Notes: generated from the sequence alone by a model not told the origin. 30,587 bases of DNA from an uncultured Enterobacteriaceae bacterium (GCA_964484035.1 CAZAEG010000385.1:1-30587); one strand, 5' to 3'. Shown: positions 1,632-23,632, numbered from the stretch's first letter. A program made the numbers and translations.

Positions 1632-2753
1632 TCAAAGGCCCAGCACGCTGAACAGGATGGAGAACAGCGCGTCGGCCACGATCACGAGGAAGATCGCCTG
1701 CACCACGCTGCGCGTGGTGTGGCGGCCGACGCTGTCGGCGCCGCCGCGGGTGCGAAAGCCCTGGAAACAACCGATCAGCGCGATGATCAGCGCGAACACG
1801 GGCGCCTTGCCGAGGCCGATCGCGTATGCCGTGACGCTCACCGCCTTGGTGAAGCGATCCAGGAAATCCTCGAAGCCCACACCCAGCTGGGCGCGCGCCA
1901 TGACCATGCCGCCGAACACGCCCAGCACGTCGGCGAAGAACGTCAGCAGCGGCAGCACCACCAGCAGCGCGAGAACTTTGGGCAGCACCAGCACCTCGAG
2001 GGGGGCGATGCCCAGGGTGCGCATGGCGTCGATCTCCTCGGTGACCGACATGGTGCCGATCTGCGCGGCATAGGCCGAGCCCGAGCGCCCGGCGACGATG
2101 ATGGCCGTCATCAGCGGGGCGAATTCGCGCAGCATCGACAGGCCCACCAGGTCGGCGACGAAGATGTTGGCGCCAAACTGCCTGAGCTGGTCGGCGGCCT
2201 GGTAGGCGATGACGACGCCCATCAGGAAGGAGAGCAGGCCGATGATCGGCAGCGCGTCGACGCCGGCGCTGCGGATGTTGTGCAGGATCGGCCGCCAGCG
2301 CATGCGCGCCGGCTGGGCGATGCTGCCGGCGAGCGCGGCGGCGGCCTCGCCGATGAAGACGAGGAGCGCGAAGGCTTCCTCGCCCGCGGCGCATGCCGCC
2401 CGGCCGGCGCGCGCCAGGGTGCCAGGGGCCGGTGGCGCAGGCGCCGGGGCGCCGGGGCGCTGCTCCAGAAGCTCGAGCAATCCGGCAAACCGGGGACTCC
2501 AGCCTCGCAGGGTCACGGCGTGCCCCTCTGCGCGCAGGCGCTGCAGCAGCCCCTGCAGCAGCCAGACGCCGACCGTGTCCAGGCGCTCGACCCCGGCGCC
2601 GTCCACGACGATCCCGGCCCGCGCGGGCACCTTGAGCGAATCGAACCGCCGCTCGAGGGCGCCTGTCCCGAGCACGGTCCAGCAACCGGACAGCGCGAAC
2701 TCCCCGGGCGCGGGCTGGGCGAGCGCAGCGGGTGCGACCGACGGGAAATTCAT
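1632..2753 (-). CDS. mlaE: MlaE-family ABC permease with N-terminal STAS-like domain
   Basis: MlaE motifs [28 protein letters not shown] and [11 protein letters not shown]; N-terminal STAS-like segment [17 protein letters not shown]. Start placed at ATG 2753 (MNFPSV); the ORF track extends to 2804. Confidence 0.88.
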
Positions 2754-2825
2754 GCGCAGCCTGCAGGCTGGACCAATTCCCCGCGCCGGTATGTACGGGA
2801 CCATACAGAGCCGGCCCTTGCGCCC

Positions 2826-3432: not shown

Positions 3433-4749
3433 ATGCGGTTGTCCATACTGGCCGGTTTGCTGATCCTGCATCTCGCCGGCTGCGGCGAAATGGCCACATT
3501 GCCGGAGAGCGCCGGAATCGGGCCGCGGCCGACCTTGCCGCCGCCGAACCCGACACTCATACCGTCGGTCCACATCGCCCCGGCCAAGGGCTGGCCGTAC
3601 GGGGCGACGCCGGTGGCTGCGGCCGGACTTGCAGTGAACGCCTACGCGGCCGGGCTCGATCACCCCCGCTGGCTCCATGTCCTGCCCAACGGGGATGTAC
3701 TGGTTGCCGAAACCAATGGGCCGCCCAGGCCGGACGACACGGCCGGCATCAAGGGCTGGGTGACGAAGCTGCTGAGGAAACGTGCAGGCGCGGGAGGTGC
3801 AAGCGCCAACCGCATCACGCTGCTGCGCGACATGGACGGGGACGGCATCGCGGAGATGCGCACCGTGTTCCTGGCCGGACTGACCTCGCCTTTCGGCATG
3901 GCGCTCGTCGGCAGCGACCTGTATGTCGCCAACACCGATTCGCTCGTGCGCTTTCCCTACAAAGCGGGCGACAGGCAGATCACCGCGCCCGGCGTAAAAG
4001 TCGTCGATCTGCCCGCGGGCACGATCAACCACCACTGGACCAAGAATGTCATTGCCAGCCGCGACGGTTCGCGACTCTATGTCACGGTAGGCTCGAACAG
4101 CAATGTGGGCGAAAACGGCATGCACAACGAGGTCAACCGCGCCGCCATCCTGGAGGTCGAACCCGCGACCGGGCGCGCGCGGCTGTTCGCCTCGGGTTTG
4201 CGCAATCCGAACGGCATGGACTGGCAGCCGCAAAGCGGCGCGCTCTGGACCGCGGTCAATGAACGCGACGAGCTCGGCAGCGACCTGGTGCCCGACTACA
4301 TGACCTCGGTGCAGGATGGCGCCTTCTACGGCTGGCCGTACAGCTATTACGGCCAGCACGTCGATGTGCGGGTGCAGCCCCCGCGTCCCGACCTGGTCGC
4401 TCGTGCCATTGCGCCCGACTATGCGCTCGGCACGCATACCGCCCCGCTCGGGCTGGTGTTCTATCGCGGCAGTCTTTTGCCGAAGCGCTATGCCGGCGGG
4501 GCGTTCATCGGCCAGCACGGCTCGTGGAATCGCAAACCGCGCAGCGGCTACAAGGTCATATTCGTATCGTTTGCCGATGGACGCCCGGTCGGGGTTCCCG
4601 AGGACGTGCTGACCGGCTTTGTCGACGCGAAGGGTGATGCTCTGGGCCGCCCCGTGGGCGTGGCGGTGGACCGTGCAGGCGCCCTGCTCGTCGCGGACGA
4701 CGTCGGCAATGTCATCTGGCGTGTGAGGCCGGCTGCGGCGAAGCGGTAA
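3433..4749 (+). CDS. PQQ-dependent sugar / L-sorbosone dehydrogenase family lipoprotein (beta-propeller)
   Basis: Lipoprotein signal [17 protein letters not shown]; motifs [67 protein letters not shown]. Start moved from 3352 to ATG 3433. Confidence 0.85.
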
Positions 4750-5016
4750 TTTCCCTCATCGACTGGCCCCGGGGAATGTTGGGGTCTGCGCACCGTGAGA
4801 TCAGGTGCCAGTCCGGCGCTTGCCCGTTCTTTCCCCGCGACGCTCCGATTGACGCGGTGCACGCACGGGATACGCCACCTCGCGAACCTTTTCACGACCC
4901 GCGCTCGCTTCTGTTTGTGCACTCGACGGGAATCGCCGCGGATTGAGCAGTTTGCGCGGCGCGCGCGCCTTGGTGGAGCTTTTGGGCTGATTCATGAGGG
5001 CCTCGAGAGGCGTCTT

Positions 5017-5250
5017 TCAGGCGCGGTCGCGCAGTTCCTTCACGCCCGCCATCTCGGCGCAGTGATCGCAGCAGTACATCCGGCCGTCCTTCTCCAGGCC
5101 GTGGCCGATCATGCGCACGCCGCATTGCACGCAGGTTGGCGCGAGCGTATGGACCGCGCATTCGAAGCTGTCGAACGTATGGGTCTTGCCTCGCGCGATA
5201 ACCTGAAAGCTTTTGTCGTAGTCATTGCCGCACGCGTCGCATTTCGCCAT
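5017..5250 (-). CDS. 77 aa Cys/His-rich putative metal-binding protein
   Basis: MAKCDACGNDYDKSFQVIARGKTHTFDSFECAVHTLAPTCVQCGVRMIGHGLEKDGRMYCCDHCAEMAGVKELRDRA; 8 Cys; GGAG RBS upstream of ATG 5250. Confidence 0.8.
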   Translation of the reverse strand: MAKCDACGNDYDKSFQVIARGKTHTFDSFECAVHTLAPTCVQCGVRMIGHGLEKDGRMYCCDHCAEMAGVKELRDRA

Positions 5251-5386
5251 CGCGAACTCCAGAGGACGGTTGCCCGTTGCCGCTTTGATATTCTTCTCCG
5301 GCCGGGTCGCGGTCTGTGCGCGGGCGCACCACCGGTCGCGCTGGCAGGGCCTGCAGCTTCGCTGCTGGCCGTATGATCCGGGTTGC

Positions 5387-6229
5387 ATGAAATCCGCTCT
5401 CGCGCCCCTCGAGACGCTGTACGAGGCAAAACGCGGCCGGTCGCTGCCGCTGCCTCCCGGGCTGGCGCGCCTGTATGGACGACTGCGCATGCCCCTCGCG
5501 CGTGCACGGCCGCACGTCATCAGCAATTTCGTGACCTCGCTGGACGGCGTCGTTTCGCTCAATGAGAAGGGACACGCCAGCGGCGGCGACATCAGCGGAT
5601 TCAGCGCCCAAGACCGCATGGTGATGGGCCTGTTGCGCGCCATCGCAGACGTGGTGATCGTCGGCGCAGGCACGCTGGGCGTCGACCGGCATCACGTCTG
5701 GACGGCCGAGCGCATTTTCCCCGGCCTCGACGGAGAATACCGCCGGCTGCGCAAGGCGCTGGGCAGGCGCGATCTGCCGCTGATGGGGGTCGTCAGCGGC
5801 AGCGGCCGGCTCGATCTGCGCCTGCCCGTGTTTACATCCGGCGAGTTGCGCTCGCTGGTCGTGACGAGCGCCGCGGGGGCAAGGCGGTTGCGCAGATCAA
5901 AGGTGCCCGCATCGGTCGAGATCCGCGCAGTGCATGGCGGCCGCGCGATACGTGCGAGGTCCATCCTCGACCAGGTGCGCCGGGTGAGTGCCGGCAAGCT
6001 GATTCTGGTCGAAGGCGGGCCGCGCTTGCTCGGCGACTTTTTCGCGGATCGCCTCCTCGACGAGCAGTTCCTGACCCTCGCGCCGCAGATTGCCGGGCGC
6101 AAGGCGGGCGATCGGCGGCTCGGCCTGGTCATGGGCCGGACTTTCGCGCCGCAGAGTCCGCTATGGGGACGCTTGATCGACGTGCGGCGCGGCAAAGTCC
6201 ATCTGTTCCTGCGGTATTCGTTTCACTGA
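5387..6229 (+). CDS. Standalone RibD C-terminal / dihydrofolate-reductase-fold reductase
   Basis: NFVTSLDG, LLRAIADVVIVGAGT, LVEGGPRLLGDF and LDEQFLTLAPQIAG motifs; no deaminase domain. Start set at ATG 5387 (MKSAL). Confidence 0.82.
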   Translation: MKSALAPLETLYEAKRGRSLPLPPGLARLYGRLRMPLARARPHVISNFVTSLDGVVSLNEKGHASGGDISGFSAQDRMVMGLLRAIADVVIVGAGTLGVDRHHVWTAERIFPGLDGEYRRLRKALGRRDLPLMGVVSGSGRLDLRLPVFTSGELRSLVVTSAAGARRLRRSKVPASVEIRAVHGGRAIRARSILDQVRRVSAGKLILVEGGPRLLGDFFADRLLDEQFLTLAPQIAGRKAGDRRLGLVMGRTFAPQSPLWGRLIDVRRGKVHLFLRYSFH

Positions 6230-6276
6230 AGTCCTTGCGCATCACCACTTCCTTGGAGAATGGCGGCGCATGGCGC

Positions 6277-6377
6277 TCACACGCCCGCGAGCCGGGCGTT
6301 GGCGAGCGTCAGGCGCTCGACCAGGATCTCCAGGAAGGCGCGGTCGAACTTGTGGCGGCAGGTGTCGGAGGCCTGCG
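6277..6377 (-). repeat. Direct repeat copy 2 (3' end of the intact kinase gene)
   Basis: Matches 2826-2926; see copy 1. Confidence 0.95.
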
Positions 6378-7572
6378 CGAGCTTGGCCGTCGGCACCGAG
6401 ATGATCTTCGATTCGTCCATCACCGTGACGTCGGCGCCGCGCAGTTGCTCGTCCTTCGACAGGTAGGCCATCTCGCCGAAGCATTCGCCGGTGTGCAGGA
6501 TGTTGAGCAGCTTGCCCTTGCGCGTCACGCGCACCTGGCCGTCGGCGAGGATGCAGAAGAAGCTGCCCGGCTCGCCTTCCTTCATCAGCAGCTCGCCCAC
6601 CGCCGCGGTGCGCCAGTTGGAGATGCGCGCCACCTCCCACAGCTCGGCGTCGGTGAAGTTGGTGAAGAAGGGGAGCCGGCGCAGCGACTCGAACTTGTCG
6701 GAGTCGGCGAACGTCTCCTTCCTGCCGCCCAGGCCCTCGTTCCTGAACACCTCCGCCAGGTCGAGCGAGAAGTCCTCCCAGGCCGCGTAGCGCTGCGCCA
6801 GGTCCTTGGCCATGGCGCGCTTGACGATGGCGTCGAGCGCCGCGGGGATCTGCGGGCGGTAGGACGAGGGCGGCTGCGGCTCGACGTTGGCGATCTGGTA
6901 GATGAGGCTGAAGTTGTTGGTGGCCTGGAACGGCAGCCGCCCGGCGAGCAGCTGGTACATGACCACGCCGAGCGAGTAGATGTCGGTGCGGTGGTCGAGC
7001 GCGTGCTCCTTCACCTGCTCGGGCGACATGTAGGCGGGCGAGCCGATGGCCGAGACCTGCGTGATGTCGCCGCTGGCGATGAGCGCGGCGCCGAAATCCG
7101 ACACCTTGACGTCGGTCTCGCCCGTGAAGAGGATGTTCGCGGGCTTCAGGTCGCGGTGCGTGATGCCCATCTTGTGCGCGAATTCCAGCGCGCGCGTGCA
7201 CTTGAAGATGATCTCCACCACGCGGTCGATGGGCAGCAGGTCCTGCGCGTCGCCGTGGCGCTCGAGCGTCCCGCCGTCGACGTACTCCATGACGATGTAC
7301 TGCTGGCGGTCGTCGGCCACCGCGTCGTAGATCTGGCAGATGTGCGGATGCTGCAGCTTGCCGGCGAGCGAAGCCTCGGTGATGAAGAGCTTGCGGTACA
7401 GCCGCCCCTTGTCCTTGCTCTCGAAGGCCTCCGGCATCACCAGCTTGACGGCGACGTTGCGGCTGTAGAACGGATCGTTGCACAGGTAGACGACGCTGGT
7501 CGCGCCGCGGCCGATCTCCTGCAGCACCGGGTACTTGCCGATGCGCTCGGGGACCGCGGCGGGCTCGTTCAT
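6277..7572 (-). CDS. Hanks-type Ser/Thr protein kinase with C-terminal cyclic-nucleotide-binding (CNB) domain, 431 aa
   Basis: [41 protein letters not shown]; C-terminal LRRLPFF...EGEPG.FF.IL.G.V.V...[10 protein letters not shown]....RGADV. ATG 7570-7572 overlaps the argH stop (ATGA). Confidence 0.93.
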
Positions 7573-8993
7573 GTCCTGGCGCGCCGGCCGCGCGCGCGCG
7601 CCACCGCTGCCTTGACGCGCTTCGGGGCGGTGCCGCCGACGTGGTCGCGCGCCGCCACCGAGCCCTCCAGGCTGAGGCAGTCGTAGACGTCGTCGCCGAT
7701 GGCGCCGGAAAAGCGCTTGAGCACCGCGAGCGGCAGCCCGGAGAGGTCGCAGCCCAGGCCTTCCGCCTCGCGCACCGCGCGCGCCACGATGCCGTGCGCG
7801 TCGCGGAACGCGACGCCCTTCCTCACCAGGTAGTCGGCGAGGTCGGTGGCGGTGGCGAAGCCCTCGAGCGCGGCGGCGCGCATCGCGTCGGGCAGCGGCT
7901 CGATGCCCGGCACCATTTCCGCGAACACGGCGAGCGTGTCCTTCAGGGTGTCGACCGCATCGAACAGCGGCTCCTTGTCCTCCTGGTTGTCCTTGTTGTA
8001 GGCGAGGGGCTGACCCTTCATCAGCACGAGCAGAGAAACCAGCGCGCCGATGACGCGCGCGCTCTTGCCGCGCGCGAGCTCGGGCACGTCGGGGTTCTTC
8101 TTCTGCGGCATGATCGAGCTGCCGGTGGTGAAGCGATCGGGCAGGCGCACGAAGCCGAAGCGCGGGCTCATCCACAGCACCAGCTCCTCGGCGAAGCGCG
8201 ACAGGTGCACCATGGCGAGCGCGGCGTGCGCGCAGAACTCGATGGCGAAGTCGCGATCCGACACCGCGTCCATCGAATTGGCGCATACGCCGTCGAACCC
8301 GAGCTCGCGCGCCACGCGCGCGCGGTCGATGGGGAAGGGGGTGCCGGCGAGCGCCGCGGCACCGAGCGGCAGCAGGTTGACGCGCCGCCGGCAGCCGGCG
8401 AAGCGCTGCCGGTCGCGCTCCAGCATCTCGACGTAGGCCATCAGGTGGTGGCCGAAGGTCACGGGCTGCGCCACCTGCAGGTGCGTGAAGCCCGGCATCA
8501 CGAGGGCGGCGTGGCGCTCGGCCTGCGCCAGCAGCGCCTCCTGCAGCCTGGCGAGGAGCGCGTCAACGGCGTCGATCTCGTCGCGCAGCCACAGCCGCAC
8601 GTCGGTCGCCACCTGGTCGTTCCTCGAGCGCGCGGTGTGCAGGCGCTTGCCCGCCTCGCCCACCCGCGCGATCAGGCGCCGCTCGATGTTCGTGTGCACG
8701 TCCTCGGCCTCGAGCGACCACGGGAAGCGTCCGGTCTCGATCTCCTTCGCGATCAGCGCCAGGCCGCGCTCGATCTCGGCGCGGTGGGCGCGCGAGATCA
8801 CGCCGCAGGCGGCGAGCATGCGCGCGTGGGCGAGCGAGGCCGAGATGTCGTGCCGCGCGAGGCGCCGGTCGAAGCCCACCGACGCCGTATAGCGCTGCAC
8901 CAGGTCGCTGACCGGCTCGACGAACCGGTCGGACCACGGTGCCGGCGTGCCGGCCTTACTGCGCGACTTCCGCTTGGTGCGAGGAGGGGCCAT
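7569..8993 (-). CDS. argH: Argininosuccinate lyase
   Basis: [60 protein letters not shown]. Start at ATG 8993. Confidence 0.97.
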
Positions 8994-9030
8994 GGGGCAT
9001 ACTTGGATCGCGGCGCGCCGCGCTATGCCA

Positions 9031-10038
9031 ATGAGTATAAAGCAAAACTTCACAGCCGACGCCCTGCCGGACTTCCGTAACCTGGGCGTCGTGGCGCGCA
9101 TTCTGATCGGCGTCAACGCGCTCGCGTTCGCGGCGGTGCTCGCCGCGGTGCCGGGCTGGGGCGCGGCGCTCGAGCGATTTCTCCTGGTGGCGGCGCGCCT
9201 CGAGCCGGCGCTCGCCGTGACGCTCGTCGTGCTGTACGCGCTCTCGAGCGCGCTGGCGCGGCTCGCGTACTGGCAGGGCGGCGCGGCGGTGGTGGCGCTC
9301 GCCCTCGCGGTGAGCGGCACGCTGCACGTGGCGAGCGCGCCGGCGGGCGATGGCGCCGCGGGCCTCGCGCGCACGCTCGTGCTCGCGACGATCGCCGCGC
9401 TGCTGCTGCTCGCCTACCTGCGCCTGCTCACGCGCGCCTATTCGCCCGCGCTGGCCGAAGCGCGGCTGCAGGCGCTGCAGTCGCGCATCCGGCCGCATTT
9501 CCTGTTCAACAGCCTGAACGCCGTGCTCTCGCTCATCCGCCGCGACCCGCGCCGCGCCGAGCGCGCGCTCGAGGACCTCGCGGACCTGTTCCGCGTGCTG
9601 ATGCAGGACAACCGCAGCTTCGTGGCGCTCGGCGACGAGATCTCGCTGCTCGAGCGCTACGCGAGCCTCGAGCAGCTGCGCCTGGGCGAGCGCCTGAAGG
9701 TGGTGTGGGAGCTGCAAGGCGCGCCGCGCGACGCCCTGCTGCCGCCGATGATCCTGCAGCCGCTGCTCGAGAACGCGATCTACCACGGCGTCGAGCCGGG
9801 CGCGGGGGAAGGGCGCGTGGTGGTGCATATCGAGCGGCGCGGCGCGCGCGTCTTCGCGCGCATCGAGAACCCGTACCTCGAGGAGCATGCGCACCGCGCC
9901 GGCAACCGCATGGCGCTGGCGAACATCCGCGAGCGGCTGCAGCTCTTCTTCGACGTCGAGGCGCGCATCGACATGCGCGTGGAGAACGATCGCTACGTGG
10001 TGGAAATCGCGATGCCGTACCGGCCGGCGAAGGCCTAG
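9031..10038 (+). CDS. algZ: LytS-type sensor histidine kinase, AlgZ/FimS-like
   Basis: TM N-terminus, [16 protein letters not shown]-box, [16 protein letters not shown]-box, degenerate G-boxes (ENP...[13 protein letters not shown]); argH<>algZ-algR-hemC-hemD synteny. Start is uncertain (8992, 9025 or 9031). Confidence 0.85.
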
Positions 10039-10043
10039 CGGCG

Positions 10044-10796
10044 ATGCTGCGCGTGTTCATCGCCGACGACGAGACGCCCGCGCGCGAGCGCCTGAAGGAG
10101 CTGCTCGCCGACATCGCCGCCGAGTTGCCCACCGAGGTGGTGGGCGAGGCGGCGAGCGGCCTCGACGCCGTGGCGCAGTTGCCGGCGAGCCGCGCCCAGG
10201 TGCTGCTGCTCGACATCGAGATGCCGGGCATGCGCGGCCTGGAGGTGGCGCGCCACCTCGCCGGGCTGGAGCTCGCGCCCGCGGTGGTGTTCGTCACCGC
10301 GCACGAGCGCCATGCGGTGGAGGCCTTCGAGCTGAACGCGCTGGACTACCTGTTGAAGCCGGTGCGCGCCGAGCGCCTCGCCGCGGCGCTGAAGAAGGCG
10401 AGCGCGGGCGGGCCGCCGGCGCGCGAGCAGCTGGCGCGAGCGGCCGCGCAGGCGCGCGAATACCTCTCGGTGACCGAGCGCAACCGCATCCACCTCGTGC
10501 TGGTGCGCGATGTCGTCTACCTGCGCGCGGAGCTGAAGTACGTGACCCTGCGCACGCGCGCGGGCGAGCACCTGATCGAGGAGTCGCTGATGGCGCTCGA
10601 GCGCGAGTTCGCGCAAGCGTTCGTGCGCGTGCACCGCAACTGCCTGGTGGCGAGAAGCGCGGTGCGCGGCTTCGAGCGCGCGGCCGACGGCGGCGACGAG
10701 CCGCACTGGAACGTGGTGCTCGAGGGCGTGCCCGAGCGCCTGCCGGTGAGCCGCCGCCAGTGGGCCGAGGTGCGGCTGCTCGTGAAGGAGGGCTGA
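10044..10796 (+). CDS. algR: LytTR-family response regulator, AlgR-like
   Basis: Receiver motifs IADDE, LLDIEMP, FVTAH, DYLLKP; LytTR motifs AELKYV, FVRVHRNCLV, LPVSRR. Confidence 0.9.
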   Translation: MLRVFIADDETPARERLKELLADIAAELPTEVVGEAASGLDAVAQLPASRAQVLLLDIEMPGMRGLEVARHLAGLELAPAVVFVTAHERHAVEAFELNALDYLLKPVRAERLAAALKKASAGGPPAREQLARAAAQAREYLSVTERNRIHLVLVRDVVYLRAELKYVTLRTRAGEHLIEESLMALEREFAQAFVRVHRNCLVARSAVRGFERAADGGDEPHWNVVLEGVPERLPVSRRQWAEVRLLVKEG

Positions 10797-21984: not shown

Positions 21985-22664
21985 GTCCTCTCTTTCGCCC
22001 CGGCGAGCAGCGCCTCGAGCTCGGCCAGGCGTTCCGCCGTGCCGACGTCGCGCCACAGGCCCGCGTGCAGCTCGCCCGAGAGCCGCCCGCCGTCCGCCGC
22101 CGCGCGCAACAGCGGCGCGAGCTGCGCGCGCTCGCCCGCGCGCACCGGCGCGACCAGCGCCGGGTCGACGAGCGCGATGCCGGTGTAAGTGTAGCGCGGC
22201 GCGGCGGCGTTCCCGACCCGGCCGTCGGCAAGCGAGAAATCGCCCGCGACGTGGTGCGGCGGATTGGGCGCGAGCACCAGGTGCGCGAGATGCGGGCCCA
22301 GGGCGCGGCGGCGAAGCATCGCGAGGTCGAAATCGCAGGCCACGTCGGAGTTGACGAGGGCGAAGGGCGCCGGGCCGAGGAGCGCGCGCGCCTGGGCGAT
22401 GCCGCCCGCGGACTCGAGCGGCTGCGGCTCGCGCGAATAGGACAGGGCGAGGCCGAACGCGCTGCCGTCGCCCAGGCGCGCTTCGATGCGCTCACCCAGC
22501 CAGCTGACGTTGATCACCACCTCGCGGAACCCGGCGCGCGCGAGCCGCTCGAGCTGCCAGACGATGAGCGGCTTGCCGCCCGCCTCGACCAGCGCCTTGG
22601 GGACCTGGTCGGTCAGGGGCCGCAGGCGCAGGCCCAGGCCCGCGGCGAGCACCATCGCCTTCAT
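21981..22664 (-). CDS. murU: N-acetylmuramate alpha-1-phosphate uridylyltransferase
   Basis: MKAMVLAAGLGLRLRPLT..PK.L, LESAGGI, YTGIAL, WRDVGT.ERL; adjacent to amgK. Confidence 0.9.
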   Translation of the reverse strand: MKAMVLAAGLGLRLRPLTDQVPKALVEAGGKPLIVWQLERLARAGFREVVINVSWLGERIEARLGDGSAFGLALSYSREPQPLESAGGIAQARALLGPAPFALVNSDVACDFDLAMLRRRALGPHLAHLVLAPNPPHHVAGDFSLADGRVGNAAAPRYTYTGIALVDPALVAPVRAGERAQLAPLLRAAADGGRLSGELHAGLWRDVGTAERLAELEALLAGAKERT

Positions 22665-23632
22665 GCGTGCAGCTCGTCCAGGAGCCGCGCGAGCGGCGCG
22701 AGCGCGCCGTGGCGCCCGGCCGCGGCGCGCGCGTAGCCGAGAAAGCGCGGCGTGTCGGCGAGATACTTCGGCTTGCCGTCGCGGTAGGTCAGGCGCGCGA
22801 AGATGCCCAGCACCTTGAGGTGGCGCTGCAGGCCCATCCACTCCTGGGCGCGCCGGAACTCGGCGAAATCCGCCGCCACCGGCAGGCGCGCGTGCTTCGC
22901 GTCCTCCCAGTAGCGCGCCGACCAGTCGAGCACGCGCGCCTCGTCCCAGCTGACGAACGCGTCGCGCGTGAGCGAGGCGATGTCGTAGGTCACCGGTCCG
23001 ATGACCGCGTCCTGGAAATCGAGCACGCCGGGATTGGGCTCGCAGCGCATGAGGTTGCGCGGCATGTAGTCGCGGTGCACGTACACCTGCGGCTGCGCCA
23101 GCGCGCTCGCCACGAGCGCCGCGCACAGGCCGTCCCACGACGCGCGCTGCGCCGCGCTGAGCGCCCGGCCGAGGTGGCGCCCGACGTACCAGTGGGGGAA
23201 GAGCGCGAGCTCGCTGCGCAGGAGCGCCTCGTCGTAGGGCGGGAGCATCCCGGCGCGCGTCGCCCGCTGCCACTTGACGAGCGCGGCGATCGCGTCGCGC
23301 ATGAGGAGGTCGGCGGTGTCGTCGTTCAGCGCGTCGAGGTAGGTGACGGTGCCAAGGTCGGTGAGCAGCAGGAAGCCCTGCCCGAGGTCCTGCGCGTGCA
23401 CGGCGGGGGCGTTCACGCCCGCGGCGCGCAGCAGCTGCGCCACGCGCGCGAACGCGGCGCTGTCCTCGTGCTCGGGCGGCGCGTCCATGGCGACGAAGCT
23501 GCGGCCGTCGGCGCGCGTGACGCGGAAATAGCGGCGGAAACTGGCGTCCGCGGACGCGGGCGCGATGCGGAACTCCGGGCCGCCGAGCGGCCCGGCGAGC
23601 CAGCGCCTGAGCGCAGCGAGCCTTTGATCCAC
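22661..23632 (-). CDS. amgK: Anomeric MurNAc/GlcNAc kinase (aminoglycoside phosphotransferase fold)
   Basis: ASADASFRRYFR, MDAPP, LLTDLG, HRDYMPRNLM, LDFQDA, LQRHLKVLGIFARL; divergent from lptD. Confidence 0.9.
   Translation of the reverse strand: MDQRLAALRRWLAGPLGGPEFRIAPASADASFRRYFRVTRADGRSFVAMDAPPEHEDSAAFARVAQLLRAAGVNAPAVHAQDLGQGFLLLTDLGTVTYLDALNDDTADLLMRDAIAALVKWQRATRAGMLPPYDEALLRSELALFPHWYVGRHLGRALSAAQRASWDGLCAALVASALAQPQVYVHRDYMPRNLMRCEPNPGVLDFQDAVIGPVTYDIASLTRDAFVSWDEARVLDWSARYWEDAKHARLPVAADFAEFRRAQEWMGLQRHLKVLGIFARLTYRDGKPKYLADTPRFLGYARAAAGRHGALAPLARLLDELHA

Follow-up and report, generated by a model that had tools for sequence, protein, structure and literature searches.

Can a bacterial Ser/Thr kinase that carries a cyclic-nucleotide-binding (CNB) domain take its orders from a cyclic nucleotide, and does it matter that its start codon overlaps the stop codon of argH? 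Both questions are raised by a 30,587-nucleotide stretch of DNA from an uncultured Enterobacteriaceae bacterium (GCA_964484035.1, CAZAEG010000385.1:1-30587; “the window” below means this whole stretch), in which positions 6277 to 8993 hold two minus-strand genes, argH and a gene for a 431-residue kinase-CNB protein. Our analysis indicates that this protein is probably an active cytoplasmic kinase of the PknB type with the C-terminal CNB domain as its sole sensor, convergent with PKG, and linked to argH through hitch-hiking. A first-pass annotation of the window had proposed a cyclic-nucleotide-gated kinase with a possible role in arginine metabolism or surface sensing, and the points on which it stood or fell are given with the results that bear on them.

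An intact kinase domain followed by a CNB domain

The gene and its parts are as follows.

6277-7572, minus strand: kinase-CNB gene P0001 (431 aa; translation and Pfam)
6781-7530, minus strand: Hanks-type kinase domain, residues 15-264 (Pfam PF00069 Pkinase, E 8.5e-53)
7444-7446, minus strand: K43 of the kinase domain
7135-7158, minus strand: catalytic loop HRDLKPAN of the kinase domain, residues 139-146
7015-7098, minus strand: DFG and activation segment of the kinase domain, including T171, residues 159-186
6280-6705, minus strand: CNB domain, residues ~290-431 (Pfam PF00027; matches to PKG, PKA-R and MloK1; AlphaFold secondary structure)
6370-6603, minus strand: Pfam cNMP_binding core, residues 324-401 (PF00027, E 2.2e-13)
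6427-6480, minus strand: phosphate-binding cassette, residues 365-382 (conservation in 78 sequences and HMMER alignment to PKG)

The kinase domain scored 179.8 bits against PF00069 (gathering cutoff, 31.7) and the CNB core 50.4 bits against PF00027 (gathering cutoff, 27.5). This order of Pfam domains, residues 15-264 and then 324-401 on one polypeptide, bears out the reversed architecture described in the first-pass annotation. All kinase motifs were found (GRGATS at residues 21-26, VAVK43, E66, HRDLKPAN at 139-146, DFG at 159-161 and SPAYMSPEQ at 178-186). Conservation was read from an alignment of 78 sequences, namely the window protein and 77 relatives whose sequences were obtained by translating genomic loci (39-95% identity), in which G23, K43, E66, H139, D141, K143, N146, D159 and F160 were invariant, as were G177, P179, Y181, P184 and Q186 in the region of the SPAYMSPEQ segment; the DFG glycine (G161) was retained in 76 sequences and the activation-loop T171, part of a Thr-Gln pair, in 69. 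The claim that the catalytic motifs are intact is therefore upheld, with every one of them invariant or nearly so, and the domain is an intact Hanks-type Ser/Thr kinase by its motifs, with activity predicted. The best solved relatives of residues 13-280 were PknB kinase domains (E 2.7e-47, ∼35% identity), with PKG ranking behind them (E 1.8e-36, including CNB stretches). No curated NCBIfam model reached its cutoff for the 431-aa protein. No transmembrane segment was found (maximum Kyte-Doolittle mean over 19 residues, 1.06), and the protein is therefore predicted to be soluble.

The cassette reads GEMAYL......R.A.V, as quoted in the first-pass annotation, and the Gly-Glu and Arg stressed there are kept across the family. 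Within the CNB domain, G345, G366 and E367 were invariant in the 78 sequences, R378 was present in 77 and A380 in 71; the HMMER alignment placed R378 opposite the Arg with which PKG binds phosphate, the window protein having two residues more. Among solved structures, the nearest CNB domains belong to true binders of cyclic nucleoside monophosphates (cNMPs), with PKG the best match (E 2.8e-21), together with PKA-R and MloK1; a CNB-diguanylate cyclase (5h5o) and Bd1971 were matched as well. At the C terminus lies a long, amphipathic and highly conserved helix (R420 and L421 in 77 of 78 sequences, N425 in 72), and the protein ends there, neither Pfam nor the structure model having returned a helix-turn-helix (HTH) domain after the CNB domain. 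Among the relatives whose gene adjoins argH, identity was 73% in the kinase domain, 68% in the CNB domain, 75% in the C-terminal helix and 57% in the linker, and both domains are under strong purifying selection.

A single-sequence AlphaFold prediction was unusable (predicted local distance difference test [pLDDT], 38), and a model built on the family alignment was taken instead (pLDDT, 89.5; predicted TM score [pTM], 0.87). In this model a kinase fold is followed by a low-confidence linker (∼281-290), the N-terminal CNB helices, the barrel and the C-terminal helix; the CNB part is modeled as a β-barrel of eight strands, in which the cassette forms a short helix, and a C-terminal helix of 28 residues (403-430). 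Because the model is confident (pTM as above), it points to a defined two-domain arrangement. A Foldseek search of the PDB matched the kinase part alone, to PknB (TM 0.85-0.92), and found no solved structure with the same two-domain arrangement.

Proposed mechanism and the question of the ligand

In the mechanism that we propose, a cyclic nucleotide would bind the β-barrel through G366, E367 and R378, ligand binding would shift the position of the linker and of the long, conserved helix at the C terminus, and kinase output would change, either by relief of autoinhibition or by promotion of dimer-dependent trans-autophosphorylation of Thr171. Taken as a whole, this chain of steps seems to us slightly favored over its failing at some point. 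Cyclic AMP (cAMP), the likelier ligand in Betaproteobacteria, is more likely to be the messenger than cyclic GMP (cGMP). We infer cyclic-nucleotide binding because the canonical cassette, which has been lost from CNB families with other ligands (PMC2246266), is retained here.

Several observations weigh against this assignment or would suit a CNB-like domain that senses neither cAMP nor cGMP, responding instead to another small molecule or acting as a dimerization or autoinhibitory module through its C-terminal helix. Compared with the canonical cassette of PKA or MloK1, that of the window protein has two additional residues, and the residue after the cassette Arg is Gly in the window protein and S, G, T, H or Q across the family; ligand specificity is therefore not readable from the sequence. 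The long, amphipathic and conserved C-terminal helix is of a kind with the dimer helices of CRP-type proteins. Certain CNB domains bind heme, 2-oxoglutarate or cyclic di-GMP. No cyclase or phosphodiesterase gene was found in the window, and neither was a PP2C phosphatase or FHA gene, the latter pair as the first-pass annotation had reported. CNB families with non-nucleotide ligands are on record, but the cassette Gly-Glu and Arg are generally lost in them (PMC2246266, Table 1), whereas they are kept in 77 to 78 of the 78 sequences examined here, and the nearest solved relatives bind cNMPs genuinely. A domain deaf to cyclic nucleotides is on this balance unlikely, though it deserves to be taken seriously. 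Returning to the nucleotide-sensing interpretation, we put at about even the chance that these proteins are true bacterial kinases dependent on cyclic nucleotides, independent and convergent counterparts of PKG and PKA; in the clade coupled to argH, a housekeeping operon would then determine their level.

A large betaproteobacterial family

Relatives of the kinase are encoded in at least 591 species genomes (contigs searched at one genome per species). Hosts are mostly Betaproteobacteria, comprising metagenome-assembled genomes (MAGs) of Burkholderiales and Nitrosomonadales, Gallionella, Accumulibacter and cultured Methyloversatilis, with a few Gammaproteobacteria and one Nitrospirota MAG as minor hosts. 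A protein database clustered at 90% identity held more than 120 clusters (87-99% identity, 416-434 aa) of identical architecture, named just “serine/threonine protein kinase”, and an exhaustive search of the representatives of a database clustered at 50% identity yielded dozens more clusters of 420-450 aa that matched over their full length at 37-57% identity. The kinase-CNB proteins are a large family of ∼430 aa, vertically inherited, strongly conserved and mainly found in Betaproteobacteria. The rarity implied by the first-pass annotation is contradicted by this family size and by a catalogue of 2007 in which the architecture already appears (PMC2246266); the locus in the window has little to add to what the family already shows, coupling to argH being a gene order specific to one clade.

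Paralogues are common. A 2.24-Mb contig carries two paralogues, one 88% identical to the window protein and linked to argH (L081) and one 41% identical (L078), and in five argH-linked loci a tandem second kinase-CNB gene directly follows the first (argH-kin1-kin2). These second, diverged paralogues lie at the following positions.

L011:7253-8590
L012:7306-8586
L014:6324-7601
L020:7241-8599
L029:1516-2829

In L032, a kin2-like copy adjoins argH directly. The L078 paralogue (5968-7260, plus strand) lies head to head with a gene encoding DUF3391 and HD_5 domains (4635-6215, minus strand). The product of the latter is an HD-GYP-type phosphohydrolase and may be a nucleotide-signaling partner; the pairing was seen in a few loci only. 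It is also worth noting that five records with betaproteobacterial-type loci (L012, L015, L025, L027 and L030) are labeled Enterobacteriaceae, Bordetella parapertussis, Streptomycetaceae or Chitinophaga pinensis, and that these labels are probably taxonomic mislabels of the deposited bins.

Coupling to argH and its origin

The neighbors on the upstream side of the kinase gene are given below.

7569-8993, minus strand: argH, argininosuccinate lyase (474 aa; Pfam Lyase_1, E 1.1e-78; ASL_C2, E 4.2e-26), the upstream member of the pair
7569-7572, minus strand: ATGA shared by the kinase start codon and the argH stop codon (read from the sequence)
8992-10796, plus strand: AlgZ/FimS-like histidine kinase and LytTR response regulator, divergent from argH (Pfam His_kinase; Response_reg and LytTR)

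On the minus strand, argH ends ...AGG ACA TGA and the kinase gene begins ATG AAC GAG, confirming the start-stop overlap reported in the first-pass annotation; the arrangement of the two genes is operon-like. No alternative start codon fits, and relatives start at the equivalent position; an in-frame extension of the open reading frame (ORF) upstream to 8286, considered as a kinase N terminus, was rejected as off-frame argH sequence. A 4-nt ATGA is the commonest type of overlap between genes of bacterial operons, and the one seen here is real yet unremarkable taken alone. Scans found no sigma-70-like promoter and no convincing terminator either between argH and the kinase gene or after the latter. 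Because of the overlap, we infer that the kinase is co-transcribed with argH and probably also translationally coupled to it. RNA runs containing part of the kinase gene exist. The GC content at third codon positions (GC3) of the kinase gene is 0.98, the highest of the region, and its codon usage is native; the GC3 value marks it as a resident core gene.

Gene context was read in 80 loci out of the at least 591 stretches bearing a relative. argH lay immediately upstream of the kinase in 24 of them (L001-L021, L029, L032 and L056), with the [AG]TGA overlap retained in ∼14 of 23 and gaps of ∼100 nt or less in the other informative loci, save L013 (∼150 nt). A second group has an M48 peptidase gene and moaC upstream and tusA and valS downstream; in a third (Methyloversatilis, Accumulibacter) the kinase gene is divergent from grpE-dnaK-dnaJ, and two more groups are without conserved neighbors. 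In a maximum-likelihood tree, the argH-linked kinases formed one clade (support 100/97) nested among members with the M48/moaC context, requiring a single change. The conservation survey that had been suggested for the argH-kinase pair thus gave a divided answer, the pair being kept across one clade and absent in its sister clades.

These distributions bear on the possibility that the kinase belongs to arginine biosynthesis, phosphorylating ArgH or a regulator of the pathway, which would explain the coupling. The adjacency, mostly with the 4-nt overlap, is kept in 24 species-level genomes, among which kinase identity falls as low as 55-63%. It is nevertheless of single origin and absent from the other 56 loci, including sister clades; some argH-linked genomes carry the tandem second kinase copy, other clades likewise sit at or beside housekeeping genes, which fits hitch-hiking for expression, and no further arg gene lies nearby. 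An arginine-specific role is accordingly improbable. The coupling is best read as a way for the kinase to gain steady expression by hitch-hiking with a housekeeping gene, rather than as a regulatory partnership with arginine synthesis, because it arose once, different housekeeping genes adjoin the kinase in sister clades and argH is the only arginine gene involved; counting against this, selection for co-expression could account for the long-term retention of the 4-nt overlap.

On its other side, argH is head to head with the AlgZ-like histidine kinase gene, as the first-pass annotation had described, and this is followed by the LytTR response regulator gene and then hemCDXY. The full hemC-algR-algZ/argH-kinase order was present in argH-linked loci wherever the upstream sequence sufficed (algZ in 21 and algR in 19 of 24), and it might be taken to mean that the kinase, together with AlgZ/AlgR (FimS/AlgR), responds to cAMP signals from surface sensing or type IV pili. 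In Pseudomonas aeruginosa, the Pil-Chp/CyaB/cAMP-Vfr circuit does control fimS-algR. This explanation is, however, just as doubtful as the arginine one: the hemC-algR-algZ/argH block is ancestral and is present without the kinase in Pseudomonas, argH intervenes between the kinase gene and algZ, which is on the opposite strand, and family members of other clades have no such neighbors. The AlgZ/AlgR adjacency thus appears to be conserved context only, a functional link lacking comparative support. With argH adjacency confined to one clade of single origin (24 of 80 loci), the tie to arginine metabolism or to AlgZ/AlgR put forward in the first-pass annotation is not borne out.

Two side observations concern argH itself. 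The ArgH N terminus (window 8937-8993, minus strand) is a basic, Lys/Arg-rich leader ahead of the conserved WSxRF motif; leader length varies among L001-L021 (relatives have MPKKKQL and MAAPAAKQKKKAKT), and its coding region overlaps the start region of the divergent algZ. In L081, argH was called as two ORFs of 295 and 114 aa (L081:8516-10004), probably through a frameshift or a long-read assembly error.

An islet inserted at the 3' end of the kinase gene

Downstream of the kinase domain, the following features were mapped.

6279-6377: last 99 nt of the kinase gene, direct-repeat copy (repeat search)
2828-2926: second copy of the 99-nt direct repeat, 94% identical (repeat search)
1632-2804, minus strand: MlaE-type permease with an N-terminal STAS_2 domain (MlaB-like/MlaE fusion; domain content)
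857-1630: mlaF, following STAS-mlaE

The two repeats bracket a 3.45-kb islet encoding a GSDH-type dehydrogenase and a RibD_C reductase (both GC3 0.81), which now parts the kinase gene from the STAS-mlaE and mlaF genes; in the closest long contig, L081, STAS-mlaE begins 63 nt after the kinase gene. The copy at 6279-6377 leaves the kinase intact and that at 2828-2926 is a remnant whose translation ends ...ANARRSAV*. STAS-MlaE was considered as a conserved target of the kinase and rejected, as mlaE was downstream only in the near-identical L081 among the relatives fetched.

A decaying or inactive pseudokinase, or a kinase of a mobile defense system, might be suspected from the foreign islet at the 3' end of the gene and from weak NCBIfam matches to MADS6 and PglW, but every catalytic residue is intact and invariant, those matches are far below their cutoffs and confined to the kinase domain (the defense-system reading was rejected on these grounds), GC3 is high, the neighbors are all core housekeeping genes and the full reading frame survived the insertion because of the 99-nt duplication, so that this last possibility is effectively refuted.

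Elsewhere in the window, an APH-family phosphotransferase gene (22661-23632, minus strand) lies upstream of lptD-surA-(pdxA?)-rsmA(ksgA), a cluster reaching 28884. The lptD-surA-rsmA region is the usual outer-membrane biogenesis cluster and bears no relation to the Hanks kinase.

Implications

What is understood of cyclic-nucleotide signaling in bacteria comes mainly from CRP-type transcription factors and a few enzyme fusions, and what is understood of Hanks kinases mainly from membrane receptors such as PknB; if our interpretation is correct, a soluble kinase with a CNB domain as its only sensor would join both fields. It would also mean that regulatory logic of the PKA/PKG type evolved independently in bacteria, and that many Betaproteobacteria possess, alongside CRP-type control, a direct route from cAMP or cGMP to Ser/Thr phosphorylation, often with several paralogues per genome. 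In the argH-linked clade, output would then depend only on the messenger, the level of the kinase being fixed by the housekeeping operon. The hypothesis is directly testable, since the family has many, highly conserved members and occurs in the cultivable Methyloversatilis universalis and M. thermotolerans.

Comparison with known systems

The architecture has been catalogued before. Kannan et al. described in 2007 an “Other_bacterial” group in which CNB domains are joined to CheY, rhodanese, kinases and DNA-binding domains (PMC2246266); its cassette consensus, GEMALLDGEPRSATVVA, is close to GEMAYL......R.A.V, with the cassette of the window protein two residues longer, and the group is a catalogue entry only. 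Planctomycetota kinases bearing CNB domains have been mentioned in passing (PMC11032199), and cyclic nucleotides are nowhere mentioned in a review of bacterial Hanks kinases from 2018 (PMC6213207). Full-text literature searches found no characterized bacterial kinase-CNB fusion, in agreement with the first-pass annotation; the architecture is on record since 2007, and a characterization of the family was not found in the literature.

Compared with Hanks kinases of the PknB and Stk1/StkP type, the window kinase shares the fold, the RD type and an activation-loop Thr-Gln like that at PknB T171. The PknB/Stk1 PASTA kinases have a transmembrane helix and PASTA domains, whereas the window protein has neither and would instead be soluble with an intracellular CNB sensor; it falls outside the corresponding NCBIfam family, scoring 276 bits against a cutoff of 450 (NF033483) through its kinase domain alone. 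CRP/FNR factors carry an HTH DNA-binding domain after the CNB domain, which is absent here. Closer in design are other bacterial proteins that join one CNB domain to an enzymatic output, namely the Pat acetyltransferase of Mycobacterium tuberculosis (Rv0998) and M. smegmatis, the CNB-EAL protein Bd1971 of Bdellovibrio and the CNB-diguanylate cyclase 5h5o, all of them among the matches to the CNB domain. In Pat, the mechanism is allosteric relief of autoinhibition. Control by cAMP is proven for these three and predicted for the window protein, which further differs in having a Hanks kinase as its output and the CNB domain at its C terminus.

With PKG (including Plasmodium PKG) and the PKA holoenzyme, the window protein shares the logic of a Gly-Glu...Arg-x-Ala CNB domain joined to a Ser/Thr kinase. 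In PKG and PKA, CNB domains are N-terminal or on a separate R subunit, whereas here a single one is C-terminal; their catalytic domain is of the AGC type with a C-terminal tail, whereas that of the window protein is PknB-like, without an AGC tail, and the chain ends in the CNB C-terminal helix. The linker segment GRKETF was considered as a pseudosubstrate for its R-K-x-T-hydrophobic resemblance and rejected, as it varies across the family. Given the reversed domain order, the non-AGC catalytic domain and the apparent lack of a conserved pseudosubstrate, the kinase-CNB protein is an independent fusion that stands outside the PKG/PKA family and is convergent with PKG.

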